Program-made: the position numbers and the translations under genes
Virus record (IMG/VR): IMGVR_UViG_3300021440_000005
Coordinates: 1-56,416 of that record
DNA: 56,416 nucleotides
DNA from: a virus
Taxonomy: Duplodnaviria > Caudoviricetes
Strand: one strand, 5' to 3'
The notes under the pieces: model-generated
Databases searched by the model: none
What the model was told of the DNA's origin: nothing
The model's input: the letters and a program-made list of their open reading frames with translations, nothing else
In this document: piece after piece, positions 14,810 to 44,592 of the stretch
How positions within the stretch are numbered: position 1 is the stretch's first letter
Layout of the letters: each line of letters begins with the position of its first letter

Positions 14810-16984
14810 ATGTATCAAAAAAATGATCCCAGTTTAGAAAATCAAAATTTAGTCGATGTTTTGGACAAAGATTATGTGAATGAACTTGGTAGACAGTTAA
14901 AACGTAGGACTGATGACGAATATTCAGCACGTTCAAACTTCATGGAAATTATTCATTCTTCATTGTCGGCATTAGGCTTAACCCAATATCAAAAGGGGAG
15001 AGGCACTGACTCAGGACTTGAATCAGACATTGTCGACTCGACATTTCTGCAGACATGGATTCAAATTAAAAATGAATTTGCTGCAGAGTTACTTGCTCCG
15101 TTTAAGATTGCAAAAACCGACATAGCTCATCGCAATTTACTTAACGCATCGCCCAATGGGAATGAGATGATTTCTCAGTTGGACGTTTATGCTCAAATAG
15201 TTGAAGAAGATATTAACAATAAACTCAATTGCGAATGGTCAGATTGGTTATTTGAAATTAAAAAGGCAATAGGAGCAGCATTTTTAACTGGTTCATCTAT
15301 TAGTAAAGTCTACATGGATCCAGTAATAAACAGACCAGTTTTAAAGATGATTAGTCCTGAAAATATTTTAATTGGTGAACACGAAAGCTCGATAGAAAAA
15401 GCTCGCTGGATCGGTCACATTTATACTCTTACGGAAGAAGAGTTAGATATCTATCAAGCGAAAGGTGTTTTTGCGGCAGTAGATATTCCTCCCGATAATT
15501 CCTACAACGAGCAAAACACTATATCCATTTCTGAACTAGAAAATAGAATTTCAGGTATCGATAGTGCGGCAAAAGATAACGATACAATTAAAAATTATAC
15601 TTTTGTCGAGGTACAGTTTTGGGAATGTGCAGCCAACAACGACGACCCTGCTATATTCACTGGTTCTGAAGAAACGGATTTCACATATTATCCTTACACA
15701 GCACATATCCATAAAGAAACTGGGACTGTTATGGCGATAGATCATGCATGGGATTTAGTTGATGGAGAAATTGTTAAACGTCAAACAATGTTTAAGATGA
15801 CATTTCTTGAGGCTAATGATTTTTGGGGTATCGGTCTAGCCCAGACATGTATTGGACTCCACAAAACCGCAACAAATATCCTTAGAAATCTTACCGATTC
15901 GTTAGCAATTGCGAACTCTCAAACTCTTGTTATGTCGCAGAATTTAGCTCCTCAACAGTCAACTATAACCTTGAGGAATGGTGAAGTGAACTCAATTGCT
16001 TCGCCGAGTGCAGATATAAACGACGCTTTGATGAGGTTGCCTTTTGAACAACCTAGCCCAATGTATATGGATTTTTGGGGACAGTTAAAAGAATCGATAT
16101 CAAAGATGGCTGGGCTTTCATCGGTAACTTTGCAGAACCTTCCACCTAACATGCAGGGGAATTTCCTTTTAGCTTTAATGGATAAAGAAAGCAAACCAAT
16201 GTCTGTTGTTTTGCAAAATTTCCAGTTTGCTTTCAACCAAATGTTTAAATTATTGCACAAGTTGTTAAGAACTGAATGGGCAAATAAACCAATTGCTCCA
16301 AGAGTTTCACCTTTAACTTACGGTGAGGTTTATCACGAATCTATAAATATTATTTCTGCTCTTGATCCGTCAATGTCGAGTTCGGCTGCACAATTAGTCA
16401 GGATGCAAACATTGCTGGATTGTGCTCTTCAATCTCCGCAACTACATGATCTTTCGGCTGTTTATGAGCGTTTGTATAAAATTATGAAGATTGATAACTA
16501 TAAGCAATTATTGCTTCCGCCAGAGGTTCTTCAACAACAACAAGAGCAGGCAATGCAAGCGCAACAGCAAGAACTTGCTGCGCAACAGCAACAACAACAG
16601 GAACAAAACCAAATTCTTATGGCTGACATTGAGAATAAGAAGATGGCAAATGAACAGGAAATAAACCTAAAATTTGAAAAACTTATGTCTGATAATGAAT
16701 TGAACCGGTTGAAAATAATACTTGAGAAAGAAAAGAGCCTGAACAATTTTAGACTCCAGCTTTTAAAAGAAAAAGGTGCAGTCGTTAAACAGAAGAATGT
16801 TGAAATTGCTCAATTGGATAAAGCTAAGAGAGAATATCTAGTAGATAGTGCTGAAATGAAGGCAGCACATGGAATAAGTTTACCAAATATTCCTGAACCT
16901 AAATTAGAGAATTACGATATCGAAGACATGCCTTTGCATGTTGATGATAATAATACTGTTTCAGGCGAACCCAAATTGGGGTAA
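14810..16984 (+). CDS. Portal protein
   Basis: 724 aa; GSSISKVY.DP and DFWGIGLA motifs; C-terminal Q-rich barrel helix typical of P22-like portals. Confidence 0.8.
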   Translation: MYQKNDPSLENQNLVDVLDKDYVNELGRQLKRRTDDEYSARSNFMEIIHSSLSALGLTQYQKGRGTDSGLESDIVDSTFLQTWIQIKNEFAAELLAPFKIAKTDIAHRNLLNASPNGNEMISQLDVYAQIVEEDINNKLNCEWSDWLFEIKKAIGAAFLTGSSISKVYMDPVINRPVLKMISPENILIGEHESSIEKARWIGHIYTLTEEELDIYQAKGVFAAVDIPPDNSYNEQNTISISELENRISGIDSAAKDNDTIKNYTFVEVQFWECAANNDDPAIFTGSEETDFTYYPYTAHIHKETGTVMAIDHAWDLVDGEIVKRQTMFKMTFLEANDFWGIGLAQTCIGLHKTATNILRNLTDSLAIANSQTLVMSQNLAPQQSTITLRNGEVNSIASPSADINDALMRLPFEQPSPMYMDFWGQLKESISKMAGLSSVTLQNLPPNMQGNFLLALMDKESKPMSVVLQNFQFAFNQMFKLLHKLLRTEWANKPIAPRVSPLTYGEVYHESINIISALDPSMSSSAAQLVRMQTLLDCALQSPQLHDLSAVYERLYKIMKIDNYKQLLLPPEVLQQQQEQAMQAQQQELAAQQQQQQEQNQILMADIENKKMANEQEINLKFEKLMSDNELNRLKIILEKEKSLNNFRLQLLKEKGAVVKQKNVEIAQLDKAKREYLVDSAEMKAAHGISLPNIPEPKLENYDIEDMPLHVDDNNTVSGEPKLG

Positions 16985-28952: not shown

Positions 28953-29729
28953 TTAAGTTGTTAGAGGTTGTACTATGGTAAAAGATTGCGCGTTTGTTGC
29001 GTCAATTCTCACTTTAACCTGGGGGTTTATCACAGGATTTGAACTTGTGGAGTAATCGTCTGGGTTGACACATCCTATTAAACGGGCGGAAATACGCGTT
29101 CCGTTTCCTAAATCATCAAATGCATTTTGCCAGTAAACCCCTGACAATCCATCCACCGCTGTATTTCCCATCGGGAAAGCTAGACTATTAACGGGATTTG
29201 GAGTTGGACTATTTGGCACATCAGGCAAATTAACTTGATAGGTGTTTAATGAAATCAGTGGGCCTTTTGTAAGGATGTCCTGATATTCTACAATTACGCC
29301 TTCATCATTGACCCCACCTGCCTGAACCTGGAATACTCCTTGTAAATCAACGCGGACAACAGCCATCACTTGTGTTTCTGGTTCAATTAAAGTTCCAGGA
29401 ATGAAGTTTGTCGATTGTTTTATATATCCGGGTTGTCCCAAAGGTGTGTACTTGAAACCTTCAAAAACTCCTATAACTGGGGCATAAATCGTTTGAACTA
29501 CTCCCGTCGGAAGCGGATAAACATATCCAGTTGGAGCTTGTGGAACATAATTATTAAATGAGTCGGGTGGAACGGATGCAACGTAGAAGTTTAAAACTGC
29601 CACGTCTCCAGCAAACCCGTACCAACCTCCTGTTGTGGGGAATGGAAACTCTTCGACGCCAGATTGGGCTAATGAAGAGTTGGAATGGCTATATAGAGAT
29701 CGTAAGCCATAAGGTGAAAGAGCTGCCAT
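28953..29729 (-). CDS. Capsid-associated protein, copy B
   Basis: MAALSPYGLRSL...; close paralogue of the upstream gene. Confidence 0.6.
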   Translation of the reverse strand: MAALSPYGLRSLYSHSNSSLAQSGVEEFPFPTTGGWYGFAGDVAVLNFYVASVPPDSFNNYVPQAPTGYVYPLPTGVVQTIYAPVIGVFEGFKYTPLGQPGYIKQSTNFIPGTLIEPETQVMAVVRVDLQGVFQVQAGGVNDEGVIVEYQDILTKGPLISLNTYQVNLPDVPNSPTPNPVNSLAFPMGNTAVDGLSGVYWQNAFDDLGNGTRISARLIGCVNPDDYSTSSNPVINPQVKVRIDATNAQSFTIVQPLTT

Positions 29730-29753
29730 AGGTATAACCTTTCTTATTATTTT

Positions 29754-30542
29754 TTAAGAAGTTAGAGGTTGAACAATTGCAAAAGATTGAGCGTTGATCG
29801 CATCAATTCTTACTTTAACCTGTGGGTTATAAACAGTCTTAGAACTTGTGGTGTAATCATCGGGGTTTACACAACCAATTAAACGGAAAGGATATGTTAT
29901 TCCTAGTCCATTTGATTGAAACGGTAAGTTATTATCTGAATCAAAGTACAAACTTGACATTCCGTTTTCTCCAGTATTTCCCATCGGGAAAAGCAGAGCG
30001 TTCACTGGGTTTGGAGTTGGACTATTTGGCACATCTGGTAACGTCACTTGATAGTAGGCTAGCGCAGAAAGATAGGATTTTGTTAAAATATATGGTCTTT
30101 CAACGACTCCTTGGCCATCAGAACGCCCTGCTTGCACTTGGTATACACCTTGCATATCAACTCGAACCACAGCCATTACCTGCGTTCCAGGTTGAATTAA
30201 GGTTCCGGGAATGAAGTTTGTCGATTCTTTGATATAACCTGGCTGCCCAAGAGGGGTGTATTTAAATCCTTCGAATACACCGATAACTGGTGCATAAACC
30301 GTATTATTTTGACGTACAGTAGGATAAGGATAAACATATCCAGTTGGAGCTTGTGGAACATAATTATTAAATGGGTCGGCTGGAACGGATGCAACGTAGA
30401 AGTTTAAACATGCTACGTCTCCAGCGAATCCGTACCATCCTCCTGTTGTGGGGAATGGAAACTCTTCGACGCCAGATTGCGCTAAAGAAGAGTTAGAATG
30501 GCTATATAGAGAACGTAAGCCATAAGGGGCAAGAGCTGCCAT
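29754..30542 (-). CDS. Capsid-associated protein, copy A
   Basis: MAALAPYGLRSL...; tandem duplicate. Confidence 0.6.
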   Translation of the reverse strand: MAALAPYGLRSLYSHSNSSLAQSGVEEFPFPTTGGWYGFAGDVACLNFYVASVPADPFNNYVPQAPTGYVYPYPTVRQNNTVYAPVIGVFEGFKYTPLGQPGYIKESTNFIPGTLIQPGTQVMAVVRVDMQGVYQVQAGRSDGQGVVERPYILTKSYLSALAYYQVTLPDVPNSPTPNPVNALLFPMGNTGENGMSSLYFDSDNNLPFQSNGLGITYPFRLIGCVNPDDYTTSSKTVYNPQVKVRIDAINAQSFAIVQPLTS

Positions 30543-30782
30543 AGGTGTAACCTTTCTTATTATTTTTATATTATTTTAATTGTATCGAAAAAAAAGTTGA
30601 CGTGAAATAAAAAAAAGGACTACTACTTCGTTAACTTTTTTATTTTTATTTCGAAGTAAGTCGCCCTAGAAAGGTTTATTTGGCTGGATGAACCATCGCC
30701 ATATTAAGCATAGTAATTTAAAAGTTGTGTTACAACATAAATCGTGTAACTATTTTACGGGATATAAAAAAGATATAAAAAT

Positions 30783-30968
30783 ATGGCTTATATTATTGAA
30801 ATAATTGCTCTCGTTTATGTTTACTATTTAATCTTCAAATCGGTTGCACGAAAGTTAAAACTTCAACGGCGACGCAACTATTTGTACAATTTGACTATTA
30901 TTCCAAAAGGGTTAATAAAACGACATGATTTACCGTTTTCTGAAAATATTAAAATTAAAAATTATTAA
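30783..30968 (+). CDS. Small membrane protein
   Basis: Hydrophobic N-terminus and basic tail. Confidence 0.4.
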   Translation: MAYIIEIIALVYVYYLIFKSVARKLKLQRRRNYLYNLTIIPKGLIKRHDLPFSENIKIKNY

Positions 30969-31055
30969 ATTTTTTGAACGAAAAAAGTGTGAAACGAACC
31001 CCTTTAAATGCACGGGAAAAGTTAAACACCCCTATCAAAGAAATAAGAACAAACG

Positions 31056-31442
31056 TTAGTCTTGTAAAGCTTTGGTATAAAATGAAAGGTCGATCTTTTT
31101 GTTATCCTCGACCTTCTCCTCTTTAATATTAATTGGTAGGTCGTTCACCGAGCAAAGCATTCTTGCTTTGTCCGTCAAATCTATTACGTTCGAAGAAATA
31201 TCCTCAATTTTTACTTTTTCAAGAATATCGCCATACATTTTTAATGACGTTAAAATTTTATTTAAGAGTGAAGGTGTTAACTGCTTTTTAGCTAATAAAT
31301 TAAACGCTTTCTCATGCGCGACTTGAACATCGTGTAAATTTCTCATCCGCATTAAAAAGGATAAGTTAGCCTCCTCGAACATTCTATTTTCGAGTAATTG
31401 CATGCGCATTGAATCGATAAGCATATTTTTGGAGGCAGTCAT
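31056..31442 (-). CDS. Hypothetical protein
   Basis: 128 aa ORF closely following the upstream gene. Confidence 0.6.
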   Translation of the reverse strand: MTASKNMLIDSMRMQLLENRMFEEANLSFLMRMRNLHDVQVAHEKAFNLLAKKQLTPSLLNKILTSLKMYGDILEKVKIEDISSNVIDLTDKARMLCSVNDLPINIKEEKVEDNKKIDLSFYTKALQD

Positions 31443-31445
31443 TTA

Positions 31446-31949
31446 TTACATCCCGTTAAATTTTGTTAGCCCGCGAATAGTTGAATATAGTACTTCGTCA
31501 AAGCATTCTGTTTTTAGTGACCATTCGAATTCTTCACAGAAATCAGCGTACTTTTTAAATATGGGGTGAGTTAATATTTCACGTTTCCAGACTGCAAAAC
31601 GTTCAACTTCAACCCGGAAGTCTTTGTTATCACGGATAAAAGAATACTCTGGTGGGTCTACAAACAAGAAAATAAATGTTTTTTTACAGGCAATAGGTTT
31701 CATTTCCTGGTTGTTTTGGACTACTGACAATTTGATGGGAACGTGTACAAAGAAAGGGAAGATTACATTATCGATTTCGCCTTCTAAACCAATGGGACGA
31801 TAGTTCATTGGCTCGACATATATTCCTTTATCAATTCTACTTATCAAGTGAGCCATGATTTGAAATCTTTGTTCTTTTGTAAATGCTGGCGCATTTTCGG
31901 CTACGTCTTGTTTATATTGATTTTCTGTTATTTCAGGTTTCTTCGACAT
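31446..31949 (-). CDS. Hypothetical protein
   Basis: 167 aa ORF with AGGA RBS. Confidence 0.6.
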   Translation of the reverse strand: MSKKPEITENQYKQDVAENAPAFTKEQRFQIMAHLISRIDKGIYVEPMNYRPIGLEGEIDNVIFPFFVHVPIKLSVVQNNQEMKPIACKKTFIFLFVDPPEYSFIRDNKDFRVEVERFAVWKREILTHPIFKKYADFCEEFEWSLKTECFDEVLYSTIRGLTKFNGM

Positions 31950-32005
31950 ATTTTCTTCCTATTATTATGGAAAAATAATATCACGTTTGGATTTTCTTAC
32001 ACTAG

Positions 32006-32068
32006 AAAAAAAGATAGTAGGGATTTTTCCCTACTAGAGCTTTACAGCACAAGGTGCTTTGTCGATAC
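32006..32068 (-). ncRNA. Candidate minimal tracrRNA
   Basis: Minus-strand RNA GUAUCGAC-AA-AGCAC.CUU.GUGCU-GUAAAGCUC-UAGUAGGGA.AAAA.UCCCUACUA-UC-U7; its 5' end can pair with the repeat start GUUAUAC; divergent from cas9. Confidence 0.65.
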
Positions 32069-32074
32069 AAAATG

Positions 32075-32103
32075 ATCATAAAACAAAATATCATGCTATG
32101 CAA
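32075..32103 (-). promoter_or_regulatory. Sigma70-like promoter for the tracrRNA candidate
   Basis: TTGCAT (32103-32098), 17 nt, TATGAT (32080-32075). Confidence 0.65.
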
Positions 32104-32111
32104 GATATTTC

Positions 32112-32139
32112 TTGAACATTTTTCAAACTAGTTTAAAAT
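32112..32139 (+). promoter_or_regulatory. Sigma70-like promoter for cas9
   Basis: TTGAAC, 16 nt, TAAAAT; TAAGGAG RBS before the ATG at 32181. Confidence 0.55.
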
Positions 32140-32180
32140 CACTCTAGATAATATGTTTTTTTTAAAAATAAGGAGTGTAA

Positions 32181-35100
32181 ATGAACAGTTTAGGTTTAAA
32201 AATATCATCTAATTTCGTTGCATATTCTCTAATACAAAAGGGGGAAGAGAATAAATTTCTTAGCACTGGTATACACATGTTTAAGGCTAATGAAGATCCA
32301 AAGCTTGGAGGTTCGCTTCAAATAGCCCGTTCTGGATTCAGAAGACGCCGTGCTTGGTTGAAGCGACGAATAAAGCGGTCGATTAATATTAGAAATATAT
32401 TCAAAACTTTAGGAGTTTCTACTTCTCCTAGTTCTGAAGAACTTAGAAAAGTTTGGGATTTGAGAGCAAAGGGATTGGACGAGAAACTTTCCATCCGTGA
32501 ACTTCAGATAATCATAGTTTACATGTCAAAAAAACGTGGGTATAAGTCCAACCGCCTTTCTAACTCACCAGCTAATGAAAATGGGAAGATCCTCGAAGCT
32601 ATTGCACGAACTAAAAACGAGATTAAAGAAGCTGGGGCTCGTACTTTTGGTGAGTTCCTGAAAGACAAACGTCAGAAGCGTAATCGTAAAGGCGAGTATT
32701 TGTTTTTCGCTGACAGAGAGATGATTGAAAATGAATTTGATTTGATTCTTGCTAAACAGCTTGAGTTAGGTTTAGAGGGCATAACTGAAGATCTTGTTGA
32801 GAAGATTCGTGAAGTATTGTTCTATCAAATTCCCATGAAGACTTTAGGTCACTTTGGTAAGAAATGTTACATTTACCCAGAAGAGAATGTACTTCACCGC
32901 GATACTTTTACTGCCAATATTTTTAATCTTTTGCGCAAAATTAATGACCTCAACATTTATCGATACAAACCTGAGTACGAAACCTACACACTTAACACTC
33001 GTCAGATCGGTGAGATTGTCCTCAAGGTATTTGATAAAAAAACTTTAACATATAAAGCTCTTAGAAAGATGTTAGGTCTTTCCATAGACTGGATAATTAA
33101 TATTGAAGAAGAAACTTTAGATAAATCTTTCTTTAATTTCACTTCTTTTCATGACTTATATCCCATATTCTCGAAAGTGGCATCATTTCCTTATGTTTTG
33201 GATAAGGACTCTCCTGAAGATATTTTAGATAACCCGAAAGCGATCAAATTCTATGACGAATTAATTAACTGTTTAGCCATTAACTTTGAACGAGATGAGT
33301 TACTGCATGAAGTTATTAAAGTCTTTGAAGACAATGGAGTTTCTGAATTTTTGGATCTTTATGACAAGGAAGAGGATGACGAGAAGTTTGATATTTATGA
33401 CATAGTTTCTTTAGAGAACTTCACTACTATGCATTCTCTTTCAAAGAAGGCCATGGAATTCTTTATAGAGCATTTCCAATATGGAAAAAGCTATGCAAGT
33501 ATTTTCAATGAACATTTCGCTAAAAACTCTGGTCTTGAAAAGTTGGTTAAGCTTCCACGTTTTGAAGAAACTAACAACTCTGTCATTAACCGAACTTGTG
33601 CCGAAGTACGTAAAGTTATTAACGCACTTAAGCGTGAGCATGAGATTGATGAAATTTATTTCTATTCAGTTCCTGATTTTGGATTAAACATGTCTGACAG
33701 ACGCCGATTAGCTTTCCTTGAGCGCGAACATAAGAAGGTCCGTACTTCACTGGTTGAGCTTTTGAAAGAGATTTGCATTAACGATCTTTCTGAAGAAACC
33801 ATTCAAAAGGCTGTGCTTTGGAAAGAGCAAGGTGAGCGTTGTATCTACACTGGTAAGTTTATAGCCCCAGATTTGCTAAATACTGATCAAGTTTCTATTA
33901 TTAATATTTTGCCTTATGGTGCTACTTTTGATAATAGCTCTGACAACAAGGCTCTCATTTATACTAATCATGACATTAAACGGAAGTCTAAATCCTTAGC
34001 TTTGTTAGCTAAAACAGACGAAAGGATCAATGCAGCTACATTCTTCTCTGATATTCAGAACATGTATAACGACAAGGTTTTGAGACATAAGAAGTATGAA
34101 CGATTGATGACCCTTGAGTTTGATGAAGCTGAGTTAAAACTAAAGAATCGTATGGATAACAGAGTAGTTAACCGAAGAATTATTAACCACTTCTCTTCAT
34201 ATCTTGTCCCACGCGAAAATGTCTTTTCAATTCGCAACAGTGTTGTTGATAACCTGAAAGAATATTTGTCTCTTAATCAATTAGAGTTTAAAGATTCTCG
34301 AGATAAAGTTGATTCAAAATACGAACATATCTTGGACGCAATGATTGTGAACTTCGCATCCAAAGACCTTCTTGAGAAGTCAGCTGCATATTTTGATTCA
34401 GTTGATAAGACGCAGGATTTCACTTATTCCGTGAGTTTTGTCGAGGAGTTAGAAAATGCAAAGATAAACCGTATGATTTCATGTGACGCTTCAGGTTCTT
34501 TGCATGGTAGCACGATTTACAAGCTCCCTAAGAAACTTCGTCACAAATACAAAGAAAATGAAACATTCATGTTATCAGTCAATGAATATTTGGATGAAGA
34601 GAACAGAATAATCAAACGTGTTCCACTTGAAACTATTGATAAAAAGAGCTTGAAAAATTTAGTGTGTAAGCTAGATCCAGGCAAACATTTATATTCAGAA
34701 ATCGTGAAACGTTTAGATAATGAGCCAGATCCAGAGAAGGCTTTTGTTGCCCCTATCTTCTTGAATGATAAGTTTAATCATCCAAAAAGAGTTAAAGAAG
34801 TTGAGATTTTCGTTGAAACACGTTCTGGAATTTTTAAACATCAGGGGGTTGCTGCTAACGGTGACTTCATACGTTTAGACTTGTTTAAGGACACGGATGG
34901 TAATATTTTGAGTTGTCCAATATATGCAATGGACGTTATTCGAGGTAAGCTACCTAATTTCCATATTACTGAAGATGGCTATGAACCGCTGAACTATACT
35001 CATAAGTTTTTGGCATCAATTAACAAAAACCAGAAGGTACTGTTTACGAAGACTAAGAAAGATTCGAAGATGGAAATCACTGGTTTTTTCCTGAACTACA

Positions 35101-35300
35101 ACCGTTCAAACAACGGCGTTCTGCTTACAGACATTATTGTTAAGACTTATAATCATCAGGGTGTATTGCAGGAAAAAGTAAGCATTCTTGAAAATGTCTT
35201 CTACTTGAAATCAGTTGATAATGTGCAGGTATTCCACTACGATATTCTAGAGTCTAAACACCTCATCGACTTTAAGGGTAACCAACCTCAATTCAAATAA
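32181..35300 (+). CDS. cas9: Type II-C Cas9 homologue with substituted RuvC and HNH catalytic residues (natural dCas9)
   Basis: 1039 aa. Intact Arg-rich bridge helix, WDLRAKGLDEKLS..KKRGYKSNR, N.VINR...VRKVINAL, LWKEQGERCIYTG and NG..IRLDLF....PIY motifs. RuvC-I is GLKIS (canonical GLDIG); RuvC-II is IYFYSVP (IHIELAR); HNH is SIINILP (EIDHILP); RuvC-III is YEHILDA (HHAxDA). Confidence 0.92.
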   Translation: MNSLGLKISSNFVAYSLIQKGEENKFLSTGIHMFKANEDPKLGGSLQIARSGFRRRRAWLKRRIKRSINIRNIFKTLGVSTSPSSEELRKVWDLRAKGLDEKLSIRELQIIIVYMSKKRGYKSNRLSNSPANENGKILEAIARTKNEIKEAGARTFGEFLKDKRQKRNRKGEYLFFADREMIENEFDLILAKQLELGLEGITEDLVEKIREVLFYQIPMKTLGHFGKKCYIYPEENVLHRDTFTANIFNLLRKINDLNIYRYKPEYETYTLNTRQIGEIVLKVFDKKTLTYKALRKMLGLSIDWIINIEEETLDKSFFNFTSFHDLYPIFSKVASFPYVLDKDSPEDILDNPKAIKFYDELINCLAINFERDELLHEVIKVFEDNGVSEFLDLYDKEEDDEKFDIYDIVSLENFTTMHSLSKKAMEFFIEHFQYGKSYASIFNEHFAKNSGLEKLVKLPRFEETNNSVINRTCAEVRKVINALKREHEIDEIYFYSVPDFGLNMSDRRRLAFLEREHKKVRTSLVELLKEICINDLSEETIQKAVLWKEQGERCIYTGKFIAPDLLNTDQVSIINILPYGATFDNSSDNKALIYTNHDIKRKSKSLALLAKTDERINAATFFSDIQNMYNDKVLRHKKYERLMTLEFDEAELKLKNRMDNRVVNRRIINHFSSYLVPRENVFSIRNSVVDNLKEYLSLNQLEFKDSRDKVDSKYEHILDAMIVNFASKDLLEKSAAYFDSVDKTQDFTYSVSFVEELENAKINRMISCDASGSLHGSTIYKLPKKLRHKYKENETFMLSVNEYLDEENRIIKRVPLETIDKKSLKNLVCKLDPGKHLYSEIVKRLDNEPDPEKAFVAPIFLNDKFNHPKRVKEVEIFVETRSGIFKHQGVAANGDFIRLDLFKDTDGNILSCPIYAMDVIRGKLPNFHITEDGYEPLNYTHKFLASINKNQKVLFTKTKKDSKMEITGFFLNYNRSNNGVLLTDIIVKTYNHQGVLQEKVSILENVFYLKSVDNVQVFHYDILESKHLIDFKGNQPQFK

Positions 35301-35311
35301 TTGCTAGTTTT

Positions 35312-35340
35312 CCCCTTCCTTAATAAGAAGGGGTTTTTTT
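35312..35340 (+). terminator. Intrinsic terminator after cas9
   Basis: ccccttc...gaagggg hairpin followed by T7. Confidence 0.75.
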
Positions 35341-35418
35341 CCTTGTTTGGATAAACACTTAAAGTATGGCAAACATTATTTATTACTCTTTTAGCAAATT
35401 TAAACATTTTAGATCCCC

Positions 35419-35874
35419 TTAGTGACATGTAAACGAATGATGTTCCTTGAAGGGTCGTTCGAGCTTAACGTCTTTATCTGGGGCGGAAATCACCGTCCGA
35501 CAAATCGTTACCCGGGACTTCTTAGTATTCTTCTTACTCATTCTTTTCCCATCAGCAATCAAGTTCTCTCTGAGCTCATATGTGTTGTGGGCAACTAGGG
35601 TCTCAAGCATTTCGTTGTCGATTTCAGTCATCTTGAACGTGTTTATGAAGTTTTCATATTCAAATTCATACTTGATTAAGGTATTAAAATTTTGTTTAAA
35701 AACAATCCCTATAAACACTGTCTTTGGATAGCCTTGAACGTCAATAACCCCAAACCTGATAGATACTTCTTTGAAGTGAAGATACTTGCCAACCAAACTC
35801 ATATAATCTTTAGGAGTAAAGTTCACATCCGGGTTATCAGTTAAAAACTTTTTTACATCCATTTCATTGTACAT
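35419..35874 (-). CDS. Hypothetical protein
   Basis: 151 aa; overlaps the stop of the upstream gene. Confidence 0.6.
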   Translation of the reverse strand: MYNEMDVKKFLTDNPDVNFTPKDYMSLVGKYLHFKEVSIRFGVIDVQGYPKTVFIGIVFKQNFNTLIKYEFEYENFINTFKMTEIDNEMLETLVAHNTYELRENLIADGKRMSKKNTKKSRVTICRTVISAPDKDVKLERPFKEHHSFTCH

Positions 35875-36967
35875 TTATTATTCCTTTTAAAATATTTCCT
35901 ATCGAGAACGCGGACGAGATATGATTTTTCGCGCGGCGCTCCTCGTTACTCATCTCATCAAGGCGCTGAGCATTTCGAATCCGATTCTGATAGTTCATTT
36001 TACGCAGGTAGTTTTTGGCTATGCAAGCGCAAAAGTTGAGGAAATGCTGATCGTTTTTGAATTCCTTATCTTTTATCTGCTGAGAAAACGTATTAATCAC
36101 ATAGTCGAAGGTTCGTTCAACTTTCGAGCAAAATGAACTGTAATTTCGTTTAGACCATGCGTTTTTAAATCTGATTTTCAAATTGTCCAGGTATTCTCGT
36201 TCGAGATGTTTATACTGCCAAGCCTTCTTCGGGGCTTGGAAAAGGTCTTTGTAGTATCGTTTCTTCTCCTCTAAGCTTTTTTTTCTCAAAACATATTTAA
36301 GAGTTTTGTTTAAATTTATAAATTTAATTAACTGTGCGACAAATTCATTTTTGTTATTCACAGCCTTGTTTTTACTTGGCTGTCGCAGCTTCATAACGTA
36401 CTTCGGAGCAAGACGGGTGATCTTAACTTTGAAGCCATTTCTTATCTCAACAGTCTGAGTTAAATATCCTTTTGTAATGAGTTTTTGGCAGTATTCAGAA
36501 ATTGTCTCTCGAGGAATGCCAATTTTCTTAGATATTTCCTGGTAAGATGGGAATTTAAGTGTCGAATAGGCTTGGTAAACGTATACCATATACAATTCCG
36601 CGACATTAATTGTCAGATCGGCTGGGATTTTAGCATTAATATAGACTCCTTGAGTTGGATTAGCGTATTTTTCTGCTAATTTTATAGCAGTATGCGCTTT
36701 TCCATTGAAAACCATAGAGATATACCCTTTTTTCTCGAGGTCATGGAGGTGTTTTTTAACCTGGCTAGTCAGTTGAGTCTTGGTTTTGCTCATATTCCAG
36801 CGTCTAGCGAGCGAAACTATAGGAATTACTCCCTGAAGTTGGATCATAGAAAGAAAAACCATGATCATTCGTTGCGTTTTAGACAGATTTTTGTCATTTA
36901 GCAAACTATTTTCAACGAATTTGAATTTTTCAGTTGACGAAGTGTTATGAAATGGTTTAGAAGTCAT
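35864..36967 (-). CDS. Winged-HTH protein, possible replication initiator
   Basis: Two HTH-like repeats (NLSKTQR...LHDLEKKGYI; FPSYQEISKKIGIPRETIS...LITKGYL); SIGNIL C-terminus. Confidence 0.6.
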   Translation of the reverse strand: MTSKPFHNTSSTEKFKFVENSLLNDKNLSKTQRMIMVFLSMIQLQGVIPIVSLARRWNMSKTKTQLTSQVKKHLHDLEKKGYISMVFNGKAHTAIKLAEKYANPTQGVYINAKIPADLTINVAELYMVYVYQAYSTLKFPSYQEISKKIGIPRETISEYCQKLITKGYLTQTVEIRNGFKVKITRLAPKYVMKLRQPSKNKAVNNKNEFVAQLIKFINLNKTLKYVLRKKSLEEKKRYYKDLFQAPKKAWQYKHLEREYLDNLKIRFKNAWSKRNYSSFCSKVERTFDYVINTFSQQIKDKEFKNDQHFLNFCACIAKNYLRKMNYQNRIRNAQRLDEMSNEERRAKNHISSAFSIGNILKGIINVQ

Positions 36968-37392
36968 GCAACAACGCCTTTCTTCTTCTGCTGCTGCTGC
37001 TTCTTGTTGTGCTTCTTGTTGTTAAGGTTCTTCTACTTGAAGTTCTTGTTGTTGAAGAAGTAAGGTTTAAAGCTTGGCGGCTAATATGTTGTAAAAAAAG
37101 ATCTTCCACCCTTAGTTTAACTACTGAGGGTTTTTTTATCTCTATATTTTGATTACAAGTATATAGCATCGATTTATTATTCTTATTTATAATATTTATA
37201 ATATTGATAAGAAAATTAACTTTTCTCATTTTTCCTGTTGACACAGGTTCGATAAATTCGTTATATTCAACTTGCATTAAGTTTTCCTCGATTCTAACCA
37301 GTCGGGGAATTTTCTTTTCCACGACCTAATTTCAAAAAAAAAGTTCAGAAATATTGTTATCAACCCAGTTTGATAAAGTCAAGGATATTAAT

Positions 37393-37989
37393 ATGCGTTA
37401 CGGATATATTTTGAGTACTAGGTTACCGAAGGATGCATTAGATCAAGAAAGAGTCTTGAAGGGGTGCGACTGTTACGAGATTTTAATTGAGTCTTTAGAG
37501 GACAATTTTTACTTACTTAGACGGTTCATTGCGAGTATGACACCAAAAGATGTTTTGATAGTATCACGAGCAAGTTCATTAGGTAACACTGCTAAGCAGA
37601 TTATCGAGCATATTACGTCACTTCTAGATAAAAATGGGCACATCATATCTATGGATGGGTTGTTAGATTCCCGCAAACCTGATTTTAAAAAGCAGCTGGA
37701 TGCTATGCTTGCTTTGGTAAACCAGATGCTGTATAGAAAGTTCGTCTATGCAAAAAAACCGAGACCTAAGAACTTAGAGCGTCTTCGTTACGCTTATAAG
37801 ACGTTAGAGCGACTTCCCATATTAATTAGAATGCTTAAAGAAGGTCAAACCTTCAATTTTATTTCATACAAGACTGGGTATGATATTAAAACCATGCAAA
37901 AACTCATCCATCATTTAAAAGAAGATGAAGATGGGTTAATGGAACTTTACAAAACTTTCTTAGCAAGGAAGAAGATGTTTAAAAGGTAA
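37393..37989 (+). CDS. Serine recombinase (resolvase)-like protein lacking the catalytic motif
   Basis: MRYGYILST in place of YARVS; DVLIVSRASSLG in place of DxLVVxKLDRL; C-terminal HTH. Confidence 0.65.
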   Translation: MRYGYILSTRLPKDALDQERVLKGCDCYEILIESLEDNFYLLRRFIASMTPKDVLIVSRASSLGNTAKQIIEHITSLLDKNGHIISMDGLLDSRKPDFKKQLDAMLALVNQMLYRKFVYAKKPRPKNLERLRYAYKTLERLPILIRMLKEGQTFNFISYKTGYDIKTMQKLIHHLKEDEDGLMELYKTFLARKKMFKR

Positions 37990-38087
37990 GAAATTCTGCA
38001 AAGTAGGATTTTCAAACTGACCCATTTTTTTACCCTCACTAGTATGATTTTCTCTTGACTGGTTTCAATTCTATGATATATTGGCGA

Positions 38088-38182
38088 AATAGTTGTTGTG
38101 TTACATCGTAAATATGTAAAAGCTAAGCCTTAGCTTAGCGAGACAGCCTGGGTGGGACTTATCCCACTTGGGTTGTTTTTTT
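38088..38182 (+). ncRNA. Small structured RNA 1 upstream of the CRISPR array
   Basis: TTGACT(38055), 16 nt, TGn-TATATT(38077) promoter; hairpins TTACAT/ATGTAA and GCTAAGC/GCTTAGC; long GC stem followed by a T-run. Confidence 0.55.
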
Positions 38183-38220
38183 CTATTGAATCCTTTTTTT
38201 CTAACAACTATACTATTTAT

Positions 38221-38293
38221 GAAACTTTTTTATTCATTCTGTTTCAATTTACGATCTCCTCAACCCCAGTTTTTCAAATTTCTGGGGTTTTTT
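38221..38293 (+). ncRNA. Small RNA 2 upstream of the CRISPR array
   Basis: TTGAAT(38186), 17 nt, TATACT(38209) promoter; AACCCCAG/CTGGGGTT hairpin plus T-run; contains repeat-like TACGATCT. Confidence 0.45.
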
Positions 38294-38325
38294 AATATCT
38301 TTGTTTAATTTTACGCTATAACGCA

Positions 38326-38757
38326 ATTATATGATCTAGAGATATCGGAAGGTAATATACCCGCCGAAGTTTATTACTGCAAACCCAACTGGTTATACAA
38401 TATAGAGATTTTAGTAGGTAATATACCTTCTAACATCCTTCATAAAGAGCTTTCACAGTTTTACGATATAGATATTTTAGTAGGTAATATACCGGGGGTC
38501 TTGGTGAAGTGAACTCAATTGCTTGTTATACGATCTAGAGATTTCAGAAGTTCAAATACCCCCTCATTAGTTATACGCGGGTCGATGAGTTATACGATCT
38601 AGAGAAAGTAGTAGGTAGTATACCCATAAAATGCGGATATATGTTACCACCTAGGTTATACAATCTAATGATTTTAGTAGGTAGTATACCTGAAGCCTTG
38701 AACTTGTCTCCGTCACTATGAGTTATACGATATAGAGATTTTGTTAAGGAGTATTCC
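38326..38757 (+). CRISPR. Degenerate type II CRISPR array: 7 x 36-bp repeats and 6 spacers of 28-31 nt
   Basis: Consensus GTTATACGATCTAGAGATTTTAGTAGGTAATATACC; repeats start at 38326, 38392, 38458, 38525, 38589, 38655 and 38722; each has 2-7 mismatches to consensus. Confidence 0.93.
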
Positions 38758-38794
38758 CTATAAATGGATCATTACTAGAGGAATTGATTATACA

Positions 38795-39391
38795 CTAAGC
38801 ATCTTGTCCAGATTTAAGTGGGTCTACGTTAATCTTAATCTCAGGGTCGTGAAGACGTTTAGGTACACCTAACGAATCCTTAATCTGAATACTCTTGTCA
38901 TGATATTCACTAGCAGCCTTCTTGGATTGATTAGATCCCCATATGCACACTCCCGATATCATGCCAAACACAACGCCTAGCATGTTAGCTAATCGTGCTT
39001 CCATGAAACCAGCTGCACCTATTGCTGACACTAACATAGATCCAAAAGTCGAAAGTGCTCCTAACACACTAGAACAAACATTAATTTTATGACAACAGCT
39101 GGCACTATCCGATAAACTCTTTTCTTCTTTTATCAGATCTTCAACTTGATTCTTCAAGTATGCGTGCCTGTCGAACAACGTCTTAGGGTCAACCGGATCA
39201 AACGAGTGCATCGACTTCGGACGGGGAGAAGAAGGAATTGTCTCGCTTGACCTTCTTGTTTCTTTACCTGGATGTTCGGGGACTAACTCTTGTGAGTCGA
39301 ATGGCTCAGCAGCTGCTAAAGAAGTAATGCATACCGATAAAATTAAAGGAGTAGTCTTCATTTGGGCCTGTATTATTATTATTCGAACCAA
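38795..39391 (-). CDS. Hypothetical exported/membrane protein (likely start 39361)
   Basis: Signal-peptide-like MKTTPLILSVCITSLAAA; two hydrophobic helices. Confidence 0.6.
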   Translation of the reverse strand: MVRIIIIQAQMKTTPLILSVCITSLAAAEPFDSQELVPEHPGKETRRSSETIPSSPRPKSMHSFDPVDPKTLFDRHAYLKNQVEDLIKEEKSLSDSASCCHKINVCSSVLGALSTFGSMLVSAIGAAGFMEARLANMLGVVFGMISGVCIWGSNQSKKAASEYHDKSIQIKDSLGVPKRLHDPEIKINVDPLKSGQDA

Positions 39392-39419
39392 TAATATTAT
39401 ACCACTAATTGAGATATTG

Positions 39420-39980
39420 TTTTCATATTTAATCCTCGTATCCTGCGTATAAAAATCGTCCCTATAGCTTCATACTAGCAGACAGAAATTTTTACCTACT
39501 GAATTATATAAATCGTAAGTTATAAACTTTATTTGAATATGCGAGTCTTACCTACTGAGTCATTGCCCCACAAGACTGCACCTTCTTAAATATTCATAGT
39601 ACTTACTAAACAATACAAAAGTTATACTTTTGTTTTACACCCCATAAGTTTTATCCCTATTCAACGATTAATCATACAAATAATGTTCATGTTGTTGTAC
39701 TGATTTATAGTCAACCCTGTAAGGTCATACAGTTCAAAAAGAATGCTCAAATTTTACAAAACAGGATTTATAGTCATACATGTAATTACTTGAGATTAAT
39801 TAAAACGACTTTTCCGTCTCTATATAGCAATAAATGTACTTTACTTGAGAATACTTTTATTAGCTATACATGTTAACTCTTTATATCCAGGTTTTAATGT
39901 TAGTATTATTGATACAATATTTAAAAGAGGTGTTTATACTCTTCATACGCTTGAAAATTAAATGAAACATTAATAGGAGA
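39420..39980 (+). repeat. Non-coding tract with dispersed, strand-polar GTYATAC mini-repeats (left)
   Basis: Exact copies at 39621, 39724 and 39773; one-mismatch copies at 39469, 39632, 39671, 39694, 39863, 39933 and 39942. Confidence 0.6.
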
Positions 39981-39986
39981 CTATAC

Positions 39987-41894
39987 ATGACTTCAAAAAA
40001 AGTAATTGGTATTGACTTAGGAACTACAAACTCGTGTGTTGCGATCATGGATGGCAGTCAGGCTAAGGTGATTGAGAACACAGAAGGACGTCGCACGACG
40101 CCATCGATTGTTGCCTTCACAGAAAGCGGCGAACGTTTAGTGGGTGATGGCGCAAAGCGTCAAGCGGTAACGAACCACGAAAATACATTCTTTGCGATTA
40201 AGCGTTTAATCGGACGTCGTTTCGAAGACGAAGCTGTGCGCAAGGATATCGATCTGGTTCCTTATAAAATTGTAAAGAGTGACAATGGTGATGCGTGGGT
40301 GAAATCTCGCGATAAGAATTACAGCCCCAGCGAAATCAGCGCATTCACATTGATCAAAATGAAAGAAACTGCTGAAAAGTTCTTGGGTGAGACGGTGTCT
40401 CAGGCTGTGATTACAGTGCCTGCGTACTTTAACGACGCTCAACGTCAAGCGACTCGGGATGCGGGTAAGATTGCAGGATTGGAAGTCTTGCGTATCGTGA
40501 ACGAGCCAACAGCTGCGGCATTAGCGTACGGCTTGGATAAAAAAGAATCTGGCGTTATCGTGGTATACGACTTGGGTGGTGGTACGTTTGACGTGTCTAT
40601 CCTTGAAGTCGGTGAAGGTGTGTTTGAAGTTAAATCCACAAATGGGGATACGTTCCTGGGTGGTGAAGACTTTGATGGGCGCATTGTTCAGTACTTAATT
40701 GATGAATTCAAAAAGGAAACAGGCGTAGATATTTCCAAGGATAAAATGGCTTTGCAACGCTTGAAAGAAGCTGCGGAAAAGGCAAAGATTGAACTGTCCA
40801 GCAGTATGCAAACTGAGGTTAACTTGCCCTTTATCACGGCTGATGCAACTGGTCCAAAGCACTTGAACATCAAGCTTTCCCGTGCGAAATATGAGACATT
40901 AGTGGATGATTTAATCCAACGCACCATGAAACCATGCGAGAAAGCTTTAAAAGATGCGGGCTTAAAAGCTTCAGATATCGACGAAGTTATCTTGGTTGGT
41001 GGTATGACACGTATGCCCAAGGTGATTGAAGAAGTTAAACGCTTCTTTAACAAAGAACCTCATCGTGGGGTGAACCCTGATGAAGTTGTGGCGATTGGTG
41101 CTGCGATTCAAGGCGGTGTGTTAACGGGTAATGTTAAAGACGTTGTGTTGTTGGATGTGACGCCATTGTCATTGGGTATCGAGACATTGGGCGGTGTGTT
41201 TACACGATTGATTGATCGCAACACAACAATTCCAACCAAGAAAAGCCAAACGTTCTCTACGGCTGAGGACAACCAAACAGCTGTGACAATTCGTGTGTTC
41301 CAAGGTGAGCGTGAAATGGCTGCGGATAACAAAATATTGGGTCAATTTGATTTGGTAGGATTGCCGGCGGCTCCACGCGGAATGCCACAAATCGAAGTTA
41401 CCTTTGATATCGATGCCAATGGTATCGTGCATGTGTCTGCAAAAGACAAGGCAACGAACAAAGAGCAGCAAATTCGCATTCAGCCCTCAGGTGGATTGAG
41501 TGATGCCGATATCGAAAAAATGGTGAAAGATGCCGAAGCCAATGCCGAAGCTGATAAAAAACGCCGTGAATTGATTGAGGCTCAAAACCAAGCGGATACG
41601 TTGTTGTATACGACTGAAAAGACGCTGAAAGAGCATGGCGATAAGATTTCTGCAGCGGACAAAGACGCCGTCGAAAAAGATCTGGCTGCGTTGAAAGAGG
41701 TTGCAAAGTCTGAGGATCTGGAGACAATCAAAGCTAAAACAGACGCGTTGATGCAGTCATCGATGAAACTGGGCGAGGCAATGTATAAGGCGGCTCAAGA
41801 GGCTCAGCCATCAGCTGAATCAGGAGAAACTTCAAAAGACGATACCGTGGTTGATGCAGAGTTTAAAGAAGTCGACGAAGACGACAAAAAATAA
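39987..41894 (+). CDS. dnaK: Chaperone DnaK (Hsp70), alphaproteobacterial type
   Basis: [24 protein letters not shown] and DLGGGTFD motifs; VVDAEF C-terminus. Confidence 0.99.
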
Positions 41895-41994
41895 GACTTA
41901 AAGTGATAAAGCTCCGTGTTCAAAAGTGGAAACTGATTGAATGCGGGGCAATTTTTAATTATGAACATATTTGAGTTTCTGTTGAGGAAGAAGA

Positions 41995-43131
41995 ATGACA
42001 TCAAAAAAAGATTATTACGAATTGATGGGAGTTGCTAAAAACATTTCACCAGAAGGGTTGAAAAAAGCGTATCGTAAGCTGGCAATGAAATACCACCCCG
42101 ATCGGAATCAGGGCGATAAAGACGCCGAAGCAAAATTTAAAGAAATTAGCGAAGCATATGAGGTATTGAGCGACGAACAAAAACGAGCAGCTTATGATCA
42201 ATATGGTCATGGTGCCTTTGATGGTAGCATGGGTGGCGACGCAAGCGGCTTCTCTAACTTTTCAAATATTTTTGAAGAGGTTTTTGGGCGAGGGTTCGGA
42301 GGAACAGGTGGGCAACGGGCTCATTCTCAAGGACAGCCGGGATCTGATTTACGATATGATGTGACCATTACCTTAGAACAAGCTCACCAAGGAATGTCTG
42401 AAAACGTATCCCTACGTAAGAGCGAAAAGTGTAGCGAATGTAATGGTTCAGGGGCTTCTAAAGGTACTAATTCTTCAACCTGTGACCAGTGTTATGGCGC
42501 GGGAACAATGCGATTCCAACAAGGTTTTTTTACTCTGGAACGTATGTGTACAAAGTGCGGTGGAGCAGGTCAAACGATAAAAGATCCCTGTAAACCCTGC
42601 GGTGGGTCTGGACGAATTCAGAAACAAAAAACAATCTCAATCACAATTCCCGTGGGTGTCGAAGATGGTACGCGTTTACGTGTTGCCGGCGAAGGTGATG
42701 CCGGAATGCGCGGTGGACAAGCGGGGGATTTATACATCTTTATTTCTGTAAAACCTCATGAATTGTTTATTCGACATGGCGACGATATTCATTGTCAGGT
42801 GCCTATTCCCATGACTACTGCCGTGCTGGGGGGTGAGGTTGAAATTCCAACAATTGATGGAACAAAAGCAAAAGTGACTATTCCTGCGGGATCACAACCA
42901 GGTGAGAAGTTAAGGCTAAAATCAAAAGGAATCAACGTAATGCGTACCACCCGACGGGGGGATATGATAGTTCATGCAATGGTCGAAATTCCCGTGAATT
43001 TAAATGCTGAACAGCAAAAACTGATGAAAGACTTTAAGGATTCAGACAAAGGTAAACCTAACGATCATCACCCAAAAACAAAAAGCTTTTTCGATAAAGT
43101 CAAAGGGTTTTGGGATAATATGAAGAAATGA
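41995..43131 (+). CDS. dnaJ: Chaperone DnaJ
   Basis: J-domain HPD, G/F-rich region, four CxxCxGxG zinc motifs. Confidence 0.99.
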
Positions 43132-43139
43132 GTTGGGTG

Positions 43140-43930
43140 TAGTCAAACAAACTGAAGTTGCATCATTAGATCATTTCTGAAAAAGAATCTTACTCTAGCA
43201 TAGTATGTTATACATTTAGTCTGCTTCTTGTTATACACTTGTTCGAATAGATGACGTACTTCTAAAAAAGACGTGTAATAGACATACCCTTTCCAGATTA
43301 GAACTTACTTGAGTAAAGGTCATATAAATATTTGACATGTAGAAATACATACAACTGGTTTCAACTTATTGCGTTATACAATTAGTCTAACTCTAATTGG
43401 TAACATAGATCTGAATTCATACAATACATTTAGTTATATTAATACACTTTGTAATAATACATATATTTTCATACAGTACCCCATTATACAGATTTTAGTT
43501 AAATAAGGACTCAAGCATGTACATTTTAATATGCCTGTTAAATTATACAGATCACTGCGGCTAACCGTCATACAAATGTAAATAAAACTCCATTATTATA
43601 TAAAAATAGTAGGAAAGATGTGTCTCAGACATACAGATTTAAGGGAAAAACCGCATGGATGCTGGCGGGATTCGGGTCTTTGGATTATACTTAAAAAAAT
43701 CCTGGGTGTGTGAGGGGGGACAAGCGCGTTACGCGCAAAGCGAGGGGGGTCAACTCGGAATTCCCAGCATGCTTCGCCTTTTCTCACCAAACCCTTTTAA
43801 CAAAAGTAATAATGTCATACGCTTAAATTTGTTTTACATATTCTTTATGATCCATCCTACACCATACCCCCTACCATTTATTCAATAATTACAGAGAGTA
43901 TCCCGATTCAAGATGAACATTATACATCCA
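43140..43930 (+). repeat. Non-coding tract with dispersed, strand-polar GTYATAC mini-repeats (right)
   Basis: Exact copies at 43207, 43230, 43373, 43567 and 43814; one-mismatch copies at 43142, 43281, 43319, 43416, 43433, 43468, 43483, 43542, 43628, 43684 and 43919. Confidence 0.65.
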
Positions 43931-44010
43931 CTATCTTTATAATCTTTTTATTTGACTTTGTAGTAGTACTACCAATACTTTAGGGATGATAAATTATATA
44001 GGAGTACAAG

Positions 44011-44592
44011 ATGAAGTTTGGCTATGCACGCGTATCAACAACGAACCAGGATTATGAGATCCAGTTGGAATCCCTTAAGTCATACGGATGTGAACGAATC
44101 TACGATGAGAAGATAAGTGGTAAGACGAATGAGAGAGAGCAACTGCAGGCATTACTGTTAAGCCTACGCGAAGGTGACATAGTGGTGGTGTATAAGTTAG
44201 ATCGTCTAGCAAGAAGTCTTAAAGGTATGTTGGAGATCGTGGAGACTATTAATAAGAGAGGCGCAGGACTTGTGTCCTTAAACGCTGGAGACATGTGCGA
44301 TACCACAACTGCGATGGGCAGAGCATTCCTTCAAATCGCTGGCGTGTTCGCAGAGCTGGAGCGAAGCATGATTGAAGAAAGAACTAGTAAAGGACGTGAG
44401 GCAGCACGCGCGCGTGGCGTAGTGTTTGGGAAACCTCGAGGCAGTTCAAACAAGGCGACCGCGGCAAAACTTGAGAGGATAAAGATATACCTTAAGGCTG
44501 GGCAGAGCTGGTCATGGATTGGAAAAGAGGTAAAATGCTCGCAAACACTGGTTAGTCGAGCGGCAAAAGAGTTGAAAGAAATAGAAGAATAG
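44011..44592 (+). CDS. Serine recombinase (resolvase/invertase family), intact
   Basis: GYARVST, VVYKLDRLARS and FAELERSMI.ERT..G...A..RG..FGKP motifs; C-terminal HTH. Confidence 0.95.
   Translation: MKFGYARVSTTNQDYEIQLESLKSYGCERIYDEKISGKTNEREQLQALLLSLREGDIVVVYKLDRLARSLKGMLEIVETINKRGAGLVSLNAGDMCDTTTAMGRAFLQIAGVFAELERSMIEERTSKGREAARARGVVFGKPRGSSNKATAAKLERIKIYLKAGQSWSWIGKEVKCSQTLVSRAAKELKEIEE

Follow-up and report, generated by a model that had tools for sequence, protein, structure and literature searches.

The locus studied here raises the question of whether a Cas9 can be served by a tracrRNA (trans-activating CRISPR RNA) that pairs with only the first few nucleotides of the repeat. It lies in a complete freshwater phage record with direct terminal repeats (IMG/VR record IMGVR_UViG_3300021440_000005), which was analyzed over its full 56,416 bp and is called the window below. 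In this genome, a 63-nt RNA gene stands divergent from a type II-C-like cas9 gene, and a CRISPR array and two tracts of short repeats lie on the cas9 strand. A first-pass annotation, made from the letters alone, had described the small RNA as a tracrRNA that keeps only the lower stem of the repeat:anti-repeat duplex. The comparisons reported here support this proposal at the level of sequence, and we give slightly better than even chances to the reading that the 63-nt minus-strand RNA is the tracrRNA of this phage Cas9, reduced to its lower-stem part. This reading is supported because the 5′ tail of the RNA and the 7-nt 5′ end of the repeat (the handle) covary between two phages, because the paired repeat columns are the constrained ones, because a longer anti-repeat was found in neither genome, and because exact guide matches end at the handle; the layout of the tracrRNA in a canonical type II-C relative agrees with it.

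The small RNA gene begins 113 nt upstream of cas9 in the divergent direction, that is, at the cas9 locus itself, as in tracrRNA genes (coordinates of all parts in Table 1). Every element that had been listed for it in the first-pass annotation was found in place, and the proposed anatomy of tail, AA, 5-bp hairpin, linker, 9-bp terminator hairpin and U7 could be read in the sequence and agreed with the fold. G32068, the likely first base, is the 7th base past the -10 box. When a 66-nt RNA was folded, its first 10 nt stayed free, and the minimum free energy (MFE) of -18.6 kcal/mol corresponded to a z score of -3.96, with 1 of 200 shuffles as stable. The terminator was also called by a scan, with 1 found against 0.1 expected in shuffles. 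Folds and terminator scans thus gave the nexus hairpin, linker and terminator of a tracrRNA scaffold, a likeness in layout only. Since the gene that follows the terminator (31949-31446) seems to own a -10-like box with TG, the small RNA looks like a stand-alone gene and not a leader.

Within this RNA, the 5′ tail GUAUCGAC is the part that can meet the repeat. In RNAduplex it formed seven pairs with repeat positions 1-7 (GUUAUAC), one of them G:U, and left a single C bulged, exactly as had been proposed from the sequence; the energy at 37 °C was -4.6 kcal/mol. With only seven pairs in each of the two phages compared here, the tail is far from an anti-repeat of at least ~20 nt that would form an RNase III substrate.

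Relatives of the locus were sought with its proteins in viral and metagenome contigs, with a DNA pattern of the RNA gene, with a profile of the neighbouring gene, and by tblastn against GenBank phages. Only one close relative was found, a complete phage of 59,936 bp whose Cas9 is 36% identical (L003, also G001; hereafter the sister phage). These searches gave no other close relative, returning only the sister phage or distant canonical Cas9s, and the one match among the GenBank phages had 21.7% identity. The locus is syntenic in the sister phage: the gene left of the small RNA is 43% identical, and 85 nt upstream of cas9, on the minus strand at ~9916-9837 (L003), there is a homologue of the RNA gene. 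Both genes keep TATGAT with 6 nt between it and a G, and they share the GUAU start and the AUCUUUU tail; the start region can be written as the block TATGAT-N-ATT-N-T-GTAT. The 10-nt block GTAAAGCTCT, formed by the linker and the first base of the terminator stem, is identical at 10 of 10 positions amid poorly conserved intergenic DNA. The terminator stem of the sister RNA has a wholly different sequence and fully retains its complementarity, so its changes are compensated.

The repeats of the sister phage differ from those of the window and start with GTAATAGAA. The 5′ tail of its RNA carries UCUAUUA, which complements positions 2-8 of the phage's own repeat (UAAUAGA) exactly, in seven Watson-Crick pairs, and in both phages the tail is placed directly 5′ of AA(A) and the hairpin. 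The cognate duplex of sister repeat and sister RNA reached -5.6 kcal/mol at 37 °C, and the swapped duplexes were weaker, at -3.9 kcal/mol for the window repeat with the sister RNA and -0.7 kcal/mol for the sister repeat with the window RNA. At 15 °C both cognate duplexes came to about -8.7 kcal/mol. Shuffled 10-nt tails reached the observed energy in 61 of 5000 cases for the sister phage. The anti-repeat therefore covaries with the repeat at two of two loci, as in tracrRNAs. Covariation in homologous loci was a check that the first-pass annotation had itself named, and the sister tail did change along with its repeat. Because the second phage adds a joint match at two loci, a tail fixed beside the AA-hairpin and a match to invariant columns, the pairing goes beyond chance.

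The constraint on the sister repeats falls on the same nucleotides. Among 23 aligned copies, columns 2-8 alone are identical in all, columns 1 and 9 are conserved in at least 90%, and the rest is variable; the pairable part of the repeat is exactly the part under strict constraint. The corresponding 9-mer has 31 exact copies, all on one strand (that of cas9) within 2.35 kb, with none elsewhere in the 59.9-kb genome, and several units consist of the bare 9-mer. A conserved hairpin inside the repeat as a substitute for the upper stem was considered and rejected, the RNAalifold consensus of the 23 repeats having 0 pairs.

No longer anti-repeat was found in either phage. In the window, the best similarity to the repeat outside the array, on either strand, scored 27 against 23-27 in five shuffled genomes, and in the sister genome the best score was 22 against 24-28; an RNAduplex sweep of the window likewise gave only chance-level matches outside the array. 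Stretches at 39477-39536, at 32117-32176 (the cas9 promoter) and in an RNA just before the array (~38086-38183) were examined as candidates and rejected, with Smith-Waterman scores of 27 and 21 that do not exceed the shuffled maxima of 23-27. Since the middles of the sister repeats are highly variable, no single long anti-repeat, whether of phage or host, would fit most of the copies.

In the window, the seven repeats of the array all differ, and GTTATAC is exact in five of them. The last 23 nt of spacer 3 (38494-38524) are identical to the phage's own portal gene (15979-16001), with only 2 of the first 8 nt matching, and spacer 6 (38691-38721) matches 27 of 31 nt at 3553-3583 in an unannotated 764-aa gene, with three mismatches near the repeat end. 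In the sister phage, a 17-nt guide (reverse complement of G001 49276-49292) equals a site at 41513-41529, 315 nt inside its own cas9 (E 6e-5); four of these nucleotides are supplied by the end of the preceding decayed repeat. The exact self-matches, spacer 3 and the 17-mer, stop right at the handle, and since exact matches end there, the order of guide and then repeat is that of a Cas9 guide. The array is read on the plus strand because guide-target matches abut the repeat 5′ end; a minus-strand reading, on which the repeat end resembles a -10 box, was ruled out by the same matches. With a non-cutting Cas9, such self-matches could serve self-regulation or the targeting of close rival phages. 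The three flanks CGCCGAGT, CCCATAGA and CATCTGTC have only the first C in common and are too few to call a protospacer adjacent motif.

Beyond the array, handles without the rest of the repeat (mini-repeats) fill two tracts. Counting exact and one-mismatch copies of GT[TC]ATAC, the left tract has 13 on the plus and 1 on the minus strand and the right tract 17 and 1, against a background of ~2.1 per kb per strand in the remaining 54,467 nt. The tracts are therefore polar and about 10-fold enriched, and in the right one ATAC occurs 20 times versus 2 for GTAT.

The Cas9-like proteins belong to the II-C lineage, as the best PDB matches of a profile of the two phage Cas9s are NmeCas9 chains (E 6e-99). 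In the alignment with NmeCas9, the window protein reads GLKIS for LGLDIG, IYFYSV for IHIETA and IINILPY for EIDHALP. The RuvC-I aspartate is K in the window and N in the sister phage, the RuvC-II glutamate is Y and T, respectively, and the HNH Asp-His is IN and TH; we take the replaced residues to be the catalytic ones. On this alignment the phage proteins do not show the set of active RuvC and HNH sites of type II-C systems, and more distant Cas9 homologues retain the canonical motifs. The sister Cas9 (L003 10001-13150; VTHIIPYS...KKKNK) retains the His and Asn of HNH, both of which the window protein has lost (IINILPYG...KRKSK), and judged from these residues the sister protein may still be able to nick DNA, while that of the window is probably unable to. 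An arginine-rich helix (R50, R54, R57, R62, R66) is invariant in nine of nine aligned homologues, so RNA binding is probably retained. The genes cas1 (PF01867) and cas2 (PF09827) were each found in 0 of the 2 phage genomes, which gives neither phage an adaptation module.

The phage occurs in roughly 14 studies. Contigs from three DNA runs were compared with the window, and those of one run are identical and those of two runs ~97-98% identical. In the strains of runs X1 and X4 (97-98% identical), other spacers are inserted between the same repeats (38326-38800), and one strain variant in these runs jumps over 38550-39554. Since near-identical strains hold different spacers, the array turns over without a phage cas1 or cas2. 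Among the differences listed for X1 and X4, the sole one in the RNA gene is a flip of the terminator loop (32024-32027), and none is a cas9 indel. Taken with the two full-length Cas9 open reading frames (ORFs) of ~1040 aa, which are intact at 36% identity and have the arginine helix in common, these differing spacers argue that the system is kept by selection.

Table 1 Coordinates of the features in the window (56,416 bp)
Feature	Position	Strand	Description
Neighbour gene	31949-31446	-	After the small-RNA terminator; -10-like box and upstream TG, read by eye
Small RNA, 63 nt	32068-32006	-	Apparent stand-alone gene divergent from cas9
Intrinsic terminator	32006..32036	-	9-pair stem 32036-32015, AAAA loop, UCUUUUUUU to 32006 (U7)
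Linker GUAAAGCUC, 9 nt	32037..32045	-	With the first terminator-stem base forms the 10-nt block
AA and nexus-like hairpin AGCAC-CUU-GUGCU, 5 bp	32046..32060 (hairpin 32058-32046)	-	In MFE and centroid folds
5′ tail, proposed 8-nt anti-repeat	32061..32068	-	Unpaired in MFE fold
Candidate small-RNA promoter	32075..32103	-	TTGCAT 32103-32098, 17 nt, TATGAT 32080-32075
Candidate cas9 promoter TTGAAC-16-TAAAAT	32112..32139	+	Back to back with the small-RNA promoter
Cas9-like gene, 1039 aa	32181..35300	+	Type II-C-like; presumed catalytic residues replaced
CRISPR array	38326..38757	+	Seven repeats of 36 nt, all different; six 28-31-nt spacers
Left handle tract (7-nt mini-repeats)	39392..39986, 595 nt	+	GT[TC]ATAC: plus strand 3 exact, 10 one-mismatch; minus strand 0 and 1
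Right handle tract (7-nt mini-repeats)	43132..44010, 879 nt	+	No long ORF; GT[TC]ATAC: plus strand 5 exact, 12 one-mismatch; minus strand 0 and 1

A canonical II-C relative was available for comparison in a Cloacimonadales metagenome-assembled genome (L005), which has cas9-cas1-cas2 and a regular array. Its tracrRNA is divergent and directly upstream of cas9; an anti-repeat of 14-15 bp is followed by AA and a small hairpin, and a short linker then leads to the terminator and U7. In both its divergent position and its module order the phage RNA agrees with this, with AA and hairpin in the same place. It differs in its anti-repeat, which has 7-8 nt where that of the relative has ~14-15 bp and the usual one at least 20, so that no upper stem is possible. 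The phage systems also depart from type II-C systems in their repeats, decayed outside the handle, in the loss of the Cas9 catalytic residues, and in that cas1 and cas2 were not found.

Several observations weigh against the assignment of the small RNA as a reduced tracrRNA. Its promoter had been called near-consensus in the first-pass annotation, and both boxes do stand at the places given, but the match to consensus is only 8 of 12 (-35, 3 of 6; -10, 5 of 6) and a promoter scan with a threshold of 9 of 12 and at least 4 of 6 per hexamer did not list it; no -35 box was seen by eye in the sister gene. Rfam, searched with 30000-41000 at E up to 1, gave no match, and RNA run X15 gave a single contig, 31619-31869, which lies outside the small-RNA gene. 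The pairing in the window taken alone is not beyond chance, as 291 of 5000 shuffled 10-nt tails (5.8%) were as good and a bulge and a G:U are needed. As duplexes of free RNA at 37 °C both are weak, and the sister tail (GUAUAUC) pairs fairly well with the window repeat too (-3.9 kcal/mol). The covariation is a single comparison between two genomes; when three RNAs were aligned with MAFFT the result made no structural sense, and a covariance model of two sequences has no power.

Three other explanations have to be weighed against these data. One keeps the RNA as the Cas9 scaffold and makes the repeat pairing longer and discontinuous, the tail binding both conserved repeat ends with the middle looped out. 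We consider it unlikely. Against it, the mini-repeats retain the 5′ handle only, a start at G32068 leaves no window RNA 5′ of the handle-pairing tail, and a 7-mer match between terminator arm and repeat in the window (CCUACUA/UAGUAGG), read by eye, has no counterpart in the sister phage. In its favour, the sister RNA is complementary to the repeat over 12 contiguous nt, the first 5 (GUAUA) to the conserved 3′ end UAUAC and the other 7 to positions 2-8, and in both phages the repeats end in TATACC and the RNAs begin with GUAU. There is also a precedent for extra pairing sites, which counts against the shorter pairing: according to PMC9522604, an RNA of short complementarity that serves Cas12c was later found to pair more extensively, at further sites. 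The other explanation that we hold improbable to a similar degree moves the tracrRNA function elsewhere, to a host-encoded RNA or to the pre-array RNA at ~38086-38183, and gives 32068-32006 another role, either as a decoy scaffold that would sequester a host Cas9 or in regulating the genes next to it; what speaks for it again tells against our assignment. It would accord with spacer turnover without phage cas1 or cas2, which suggests host machinery, and with the strong fold (z -5.0) of the pre-array RNA, which has its own terminator and its own 10/12 promoter with TG. It also has parallels in a phage II-C Cas9 tracrRNA aimed at host repeats (Altae-Tran 2023, PMC10910872) and in phage decoys resembling single-guide RNAs (sgRNAs; Feussner 2026). 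In both phages, nevertheless, it is the divergent RNA that stays beside cas9 and has a tail that follows the cognate repeat, whereas the structure of the pre-array RNA is not conserved in the sister phage (z -0.98). The sister repeat middles are too variable for any tracrRNA to reach beyond the short conserved ends, and the 21-nt repeat core had 0 matches in metagenome and viral contigs when searched as an exact string with one IUPAC letter.

In the last of these explanations, the locus would be a decaying remnant, its RNA the leftover 3′ half of a tracrRNA without an anti-repeat, and the 7-nt match a product of chance. The seven dissimilar window repeats, the lost catalytic residues, the failure to find cas1 and cas2 and the window pairing, which alone has p ~0.06, would all suit such a remnant. 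A remnant would hardly account for full-length cas9 genes in two phages at 36% identity, for a 9-mer invariant in 31 of 31 copies, for a tail that changed together with the repeat beside a linker and terminator maintained with compensatory changes, or for spacers that differ among near-identical strains with no cas9 indel among the differences listed for X1 and X4, and we regard decay as very unlikely.

If the small RNA is indeed a reduced tracrRNA, it would be transcribed from its own promoter, divergent from cas9, to its own terminator, as the conserved -10/start block and the terminator suggest. By analogy with type II-C tracrRNAs, the nexus-like AA-hairpin, the terminator hairpin and the conserved linker between them would be what Cas9 grips. 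The handle GUYAUAC would be present in plus-strand RNAs made from the array and the mini-repeat tracts; within the protein it would pair with the first 8 nt of the small RNA, and the ~17-24 nt immediately 5′ of the handle would then serve as guide, a step to which the complementarity, the covariation and the matches ending at the handle point and which presumes that the guide is loaded. Since a duplex of 7 bp does not serve as a substrate for RNase III, the guide ends would be made in some other way, and guides would mature without RNase III; type II-C systems can work without this enzyme. With RuvC lost in both phages, and in the window the HNH histidine as well, the Cas9-RNA complex would bind DNA without cutting it, and the outcome would be silencing of rival phages or of the phage's own genes. 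If nothing but the handle has to pair, this would account for the decay of the remaining repeat, and bare handles could spread. A wider proposal is more doubtful, although we think it possible: that the 7-nt tag (GUYAUAC, or UAAUAGA in the sister phage), read by the 8-nt tail, is sufficient for whatever transcript carries it to guide a non-cutting Cas9.

To our knowledge, every characterised Cas9 uses a long repeat:anti-repeat duplex, and no description of a Cas9 tracrRNA with an anti-repeat this short was found in the literature searched. In work on reprogrammed tracrRNAs and non-canonical CRISPR RNAs, engineered long anti-repeats together with RNase III reportedly made a Cas9 guide of any RNA that pairs with the anti-repeat. 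The idea of RNA capture is the same as that proposed here, the difference being that the putative tag of the phage is natural and has 7 nt.

Three further systems described in the literature bear some resemblance to the phage RNA. The scoutRNA of Cas12c/d acts in trans, docks on the repeat through only 3-5 nt and does not need RNase III (PMC9522604). Docking of a trans RNA on the repeat by a few nucleotides is likewise what we propose, a likeness in principle only; scoutRNA serves type V-C/V-D Cas12c/d and not a Cas9 homologue, the folds are unrelated, and the phage RNA does not belong among the scoutRNAs. Variant II-C2 comprises phage Cas9s with a dead RuvC and an apparently active HNH, linked to SNF2 and without an array, and its tracrRNA has an anti-repeat that perfectly matches host repeats and is read as anti-CRISPR mimicry (Altae-Tran 2023, PMC10910872; Makarova 2025, PMC12669027). 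Compared by these descriptions only, the phages studied here share with it a phage-borne II-C Cas9 with dead RuvC and a putative tracrRNA nearby. They differ in that SNF2 helicase (PF00176) was found in 0 of the 2 genomes, that both phages have arrays of their own and that the short anti-repeat matches their own repeats, so that neither shows the SNF2 link without an array that marks the variant; of the HNH site, apparently active in II-C2, His and Asn are kept in the sister protein and lost in that of the window. Viral sgRNAs, tracr-L and scaRNAs are compact Cas9 guide scaffolds encoded by phages that silence by binding (Feussner et al., bioRxiv 2026). They resemble the phage RNA in being phage-encoded and in binding or silencing instead of cutting, and they differ in being single fused guides on host Cas9 for counter-defence, whereas here many guides would act in trans on the phage's own Cas9.

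Some further features of the two genomes were noted. The cas9 gene of the sister phage has a promoter TTGATA-16-TATAAT (11/12) at the same place as the candidate of the window. In the window, a repeat-like stretch on the minus strand at 32117-32156, made of ATCTAGAG, 2 extra nt and ATTTTA, lies over the -10 box and start of cas9; its score of 21 is at chance level, and it could be a docking site for cas9 autoregulation. Just before the array, a second small RNA can be read on the plus strand (38055-38183) behind a promoter TTGACT-16-TATATT (10/12, with TG). After ~16 nt it forms a hairpin of 6 bp (GUUACAU/AUGUAA); AA, a second hairpin of 7 bp and a linker follow, and the RNA ends in a strong terminator with a U-run. 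Its fold (~38086-38183) has an MFE of -38.3 and a z score of -5.0. The first hairpin resembles handle and tail fused in cis, and this RNA may be a natural single-guide-like RNA. Its 11-mer ATAGTTGTTGT is found once in each genome, in the sister phage likewise ahead of the array, but the structure is not retained in that phage.

The stretch that separates the handle tracts of the window (39987-43131) holds a gene for Hsp70/DnaK (Pfam E 5e-278) and, after it, a 378-aa ORF. The right tract is directly followed by a gene for a serine recombinase/DNA invertase (44011-44592; PHROG 125, E 9e-60). A tandem pair of paralogous genes (28953-29729 and 29754-30542; region 29317-30567), with DNA 76-92% alike along the whole of the genes, contains the repeat families D1, D3, D4 and D5.

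If a 7-bp handle suffices in nature, it would set a natural lower limit for guide loading, and it would show how a CRISPR array can break up until only bare tags are left. For a DNA-binding Cas9 of ~1040 aa it would also amount to a very small two-part guide design, in which a ~63-nt scaffold is combined with a guide that carries 7 extra nt. Should any tagged transcript be able to act as a guide, the polar tag tracts would be irregularly spaced guide factories, tagged RNAs of the host or of rival phages could be captured too, and the phage would run a programmable silencing system that is the natural counterpart of engineered reprogrammed tracrRNAs. The locus would also be a further case of a virus that retains a non-cutting Cas9 with its own guides, which would bear on rivalry between phages or on the timing of the phage's own genes.

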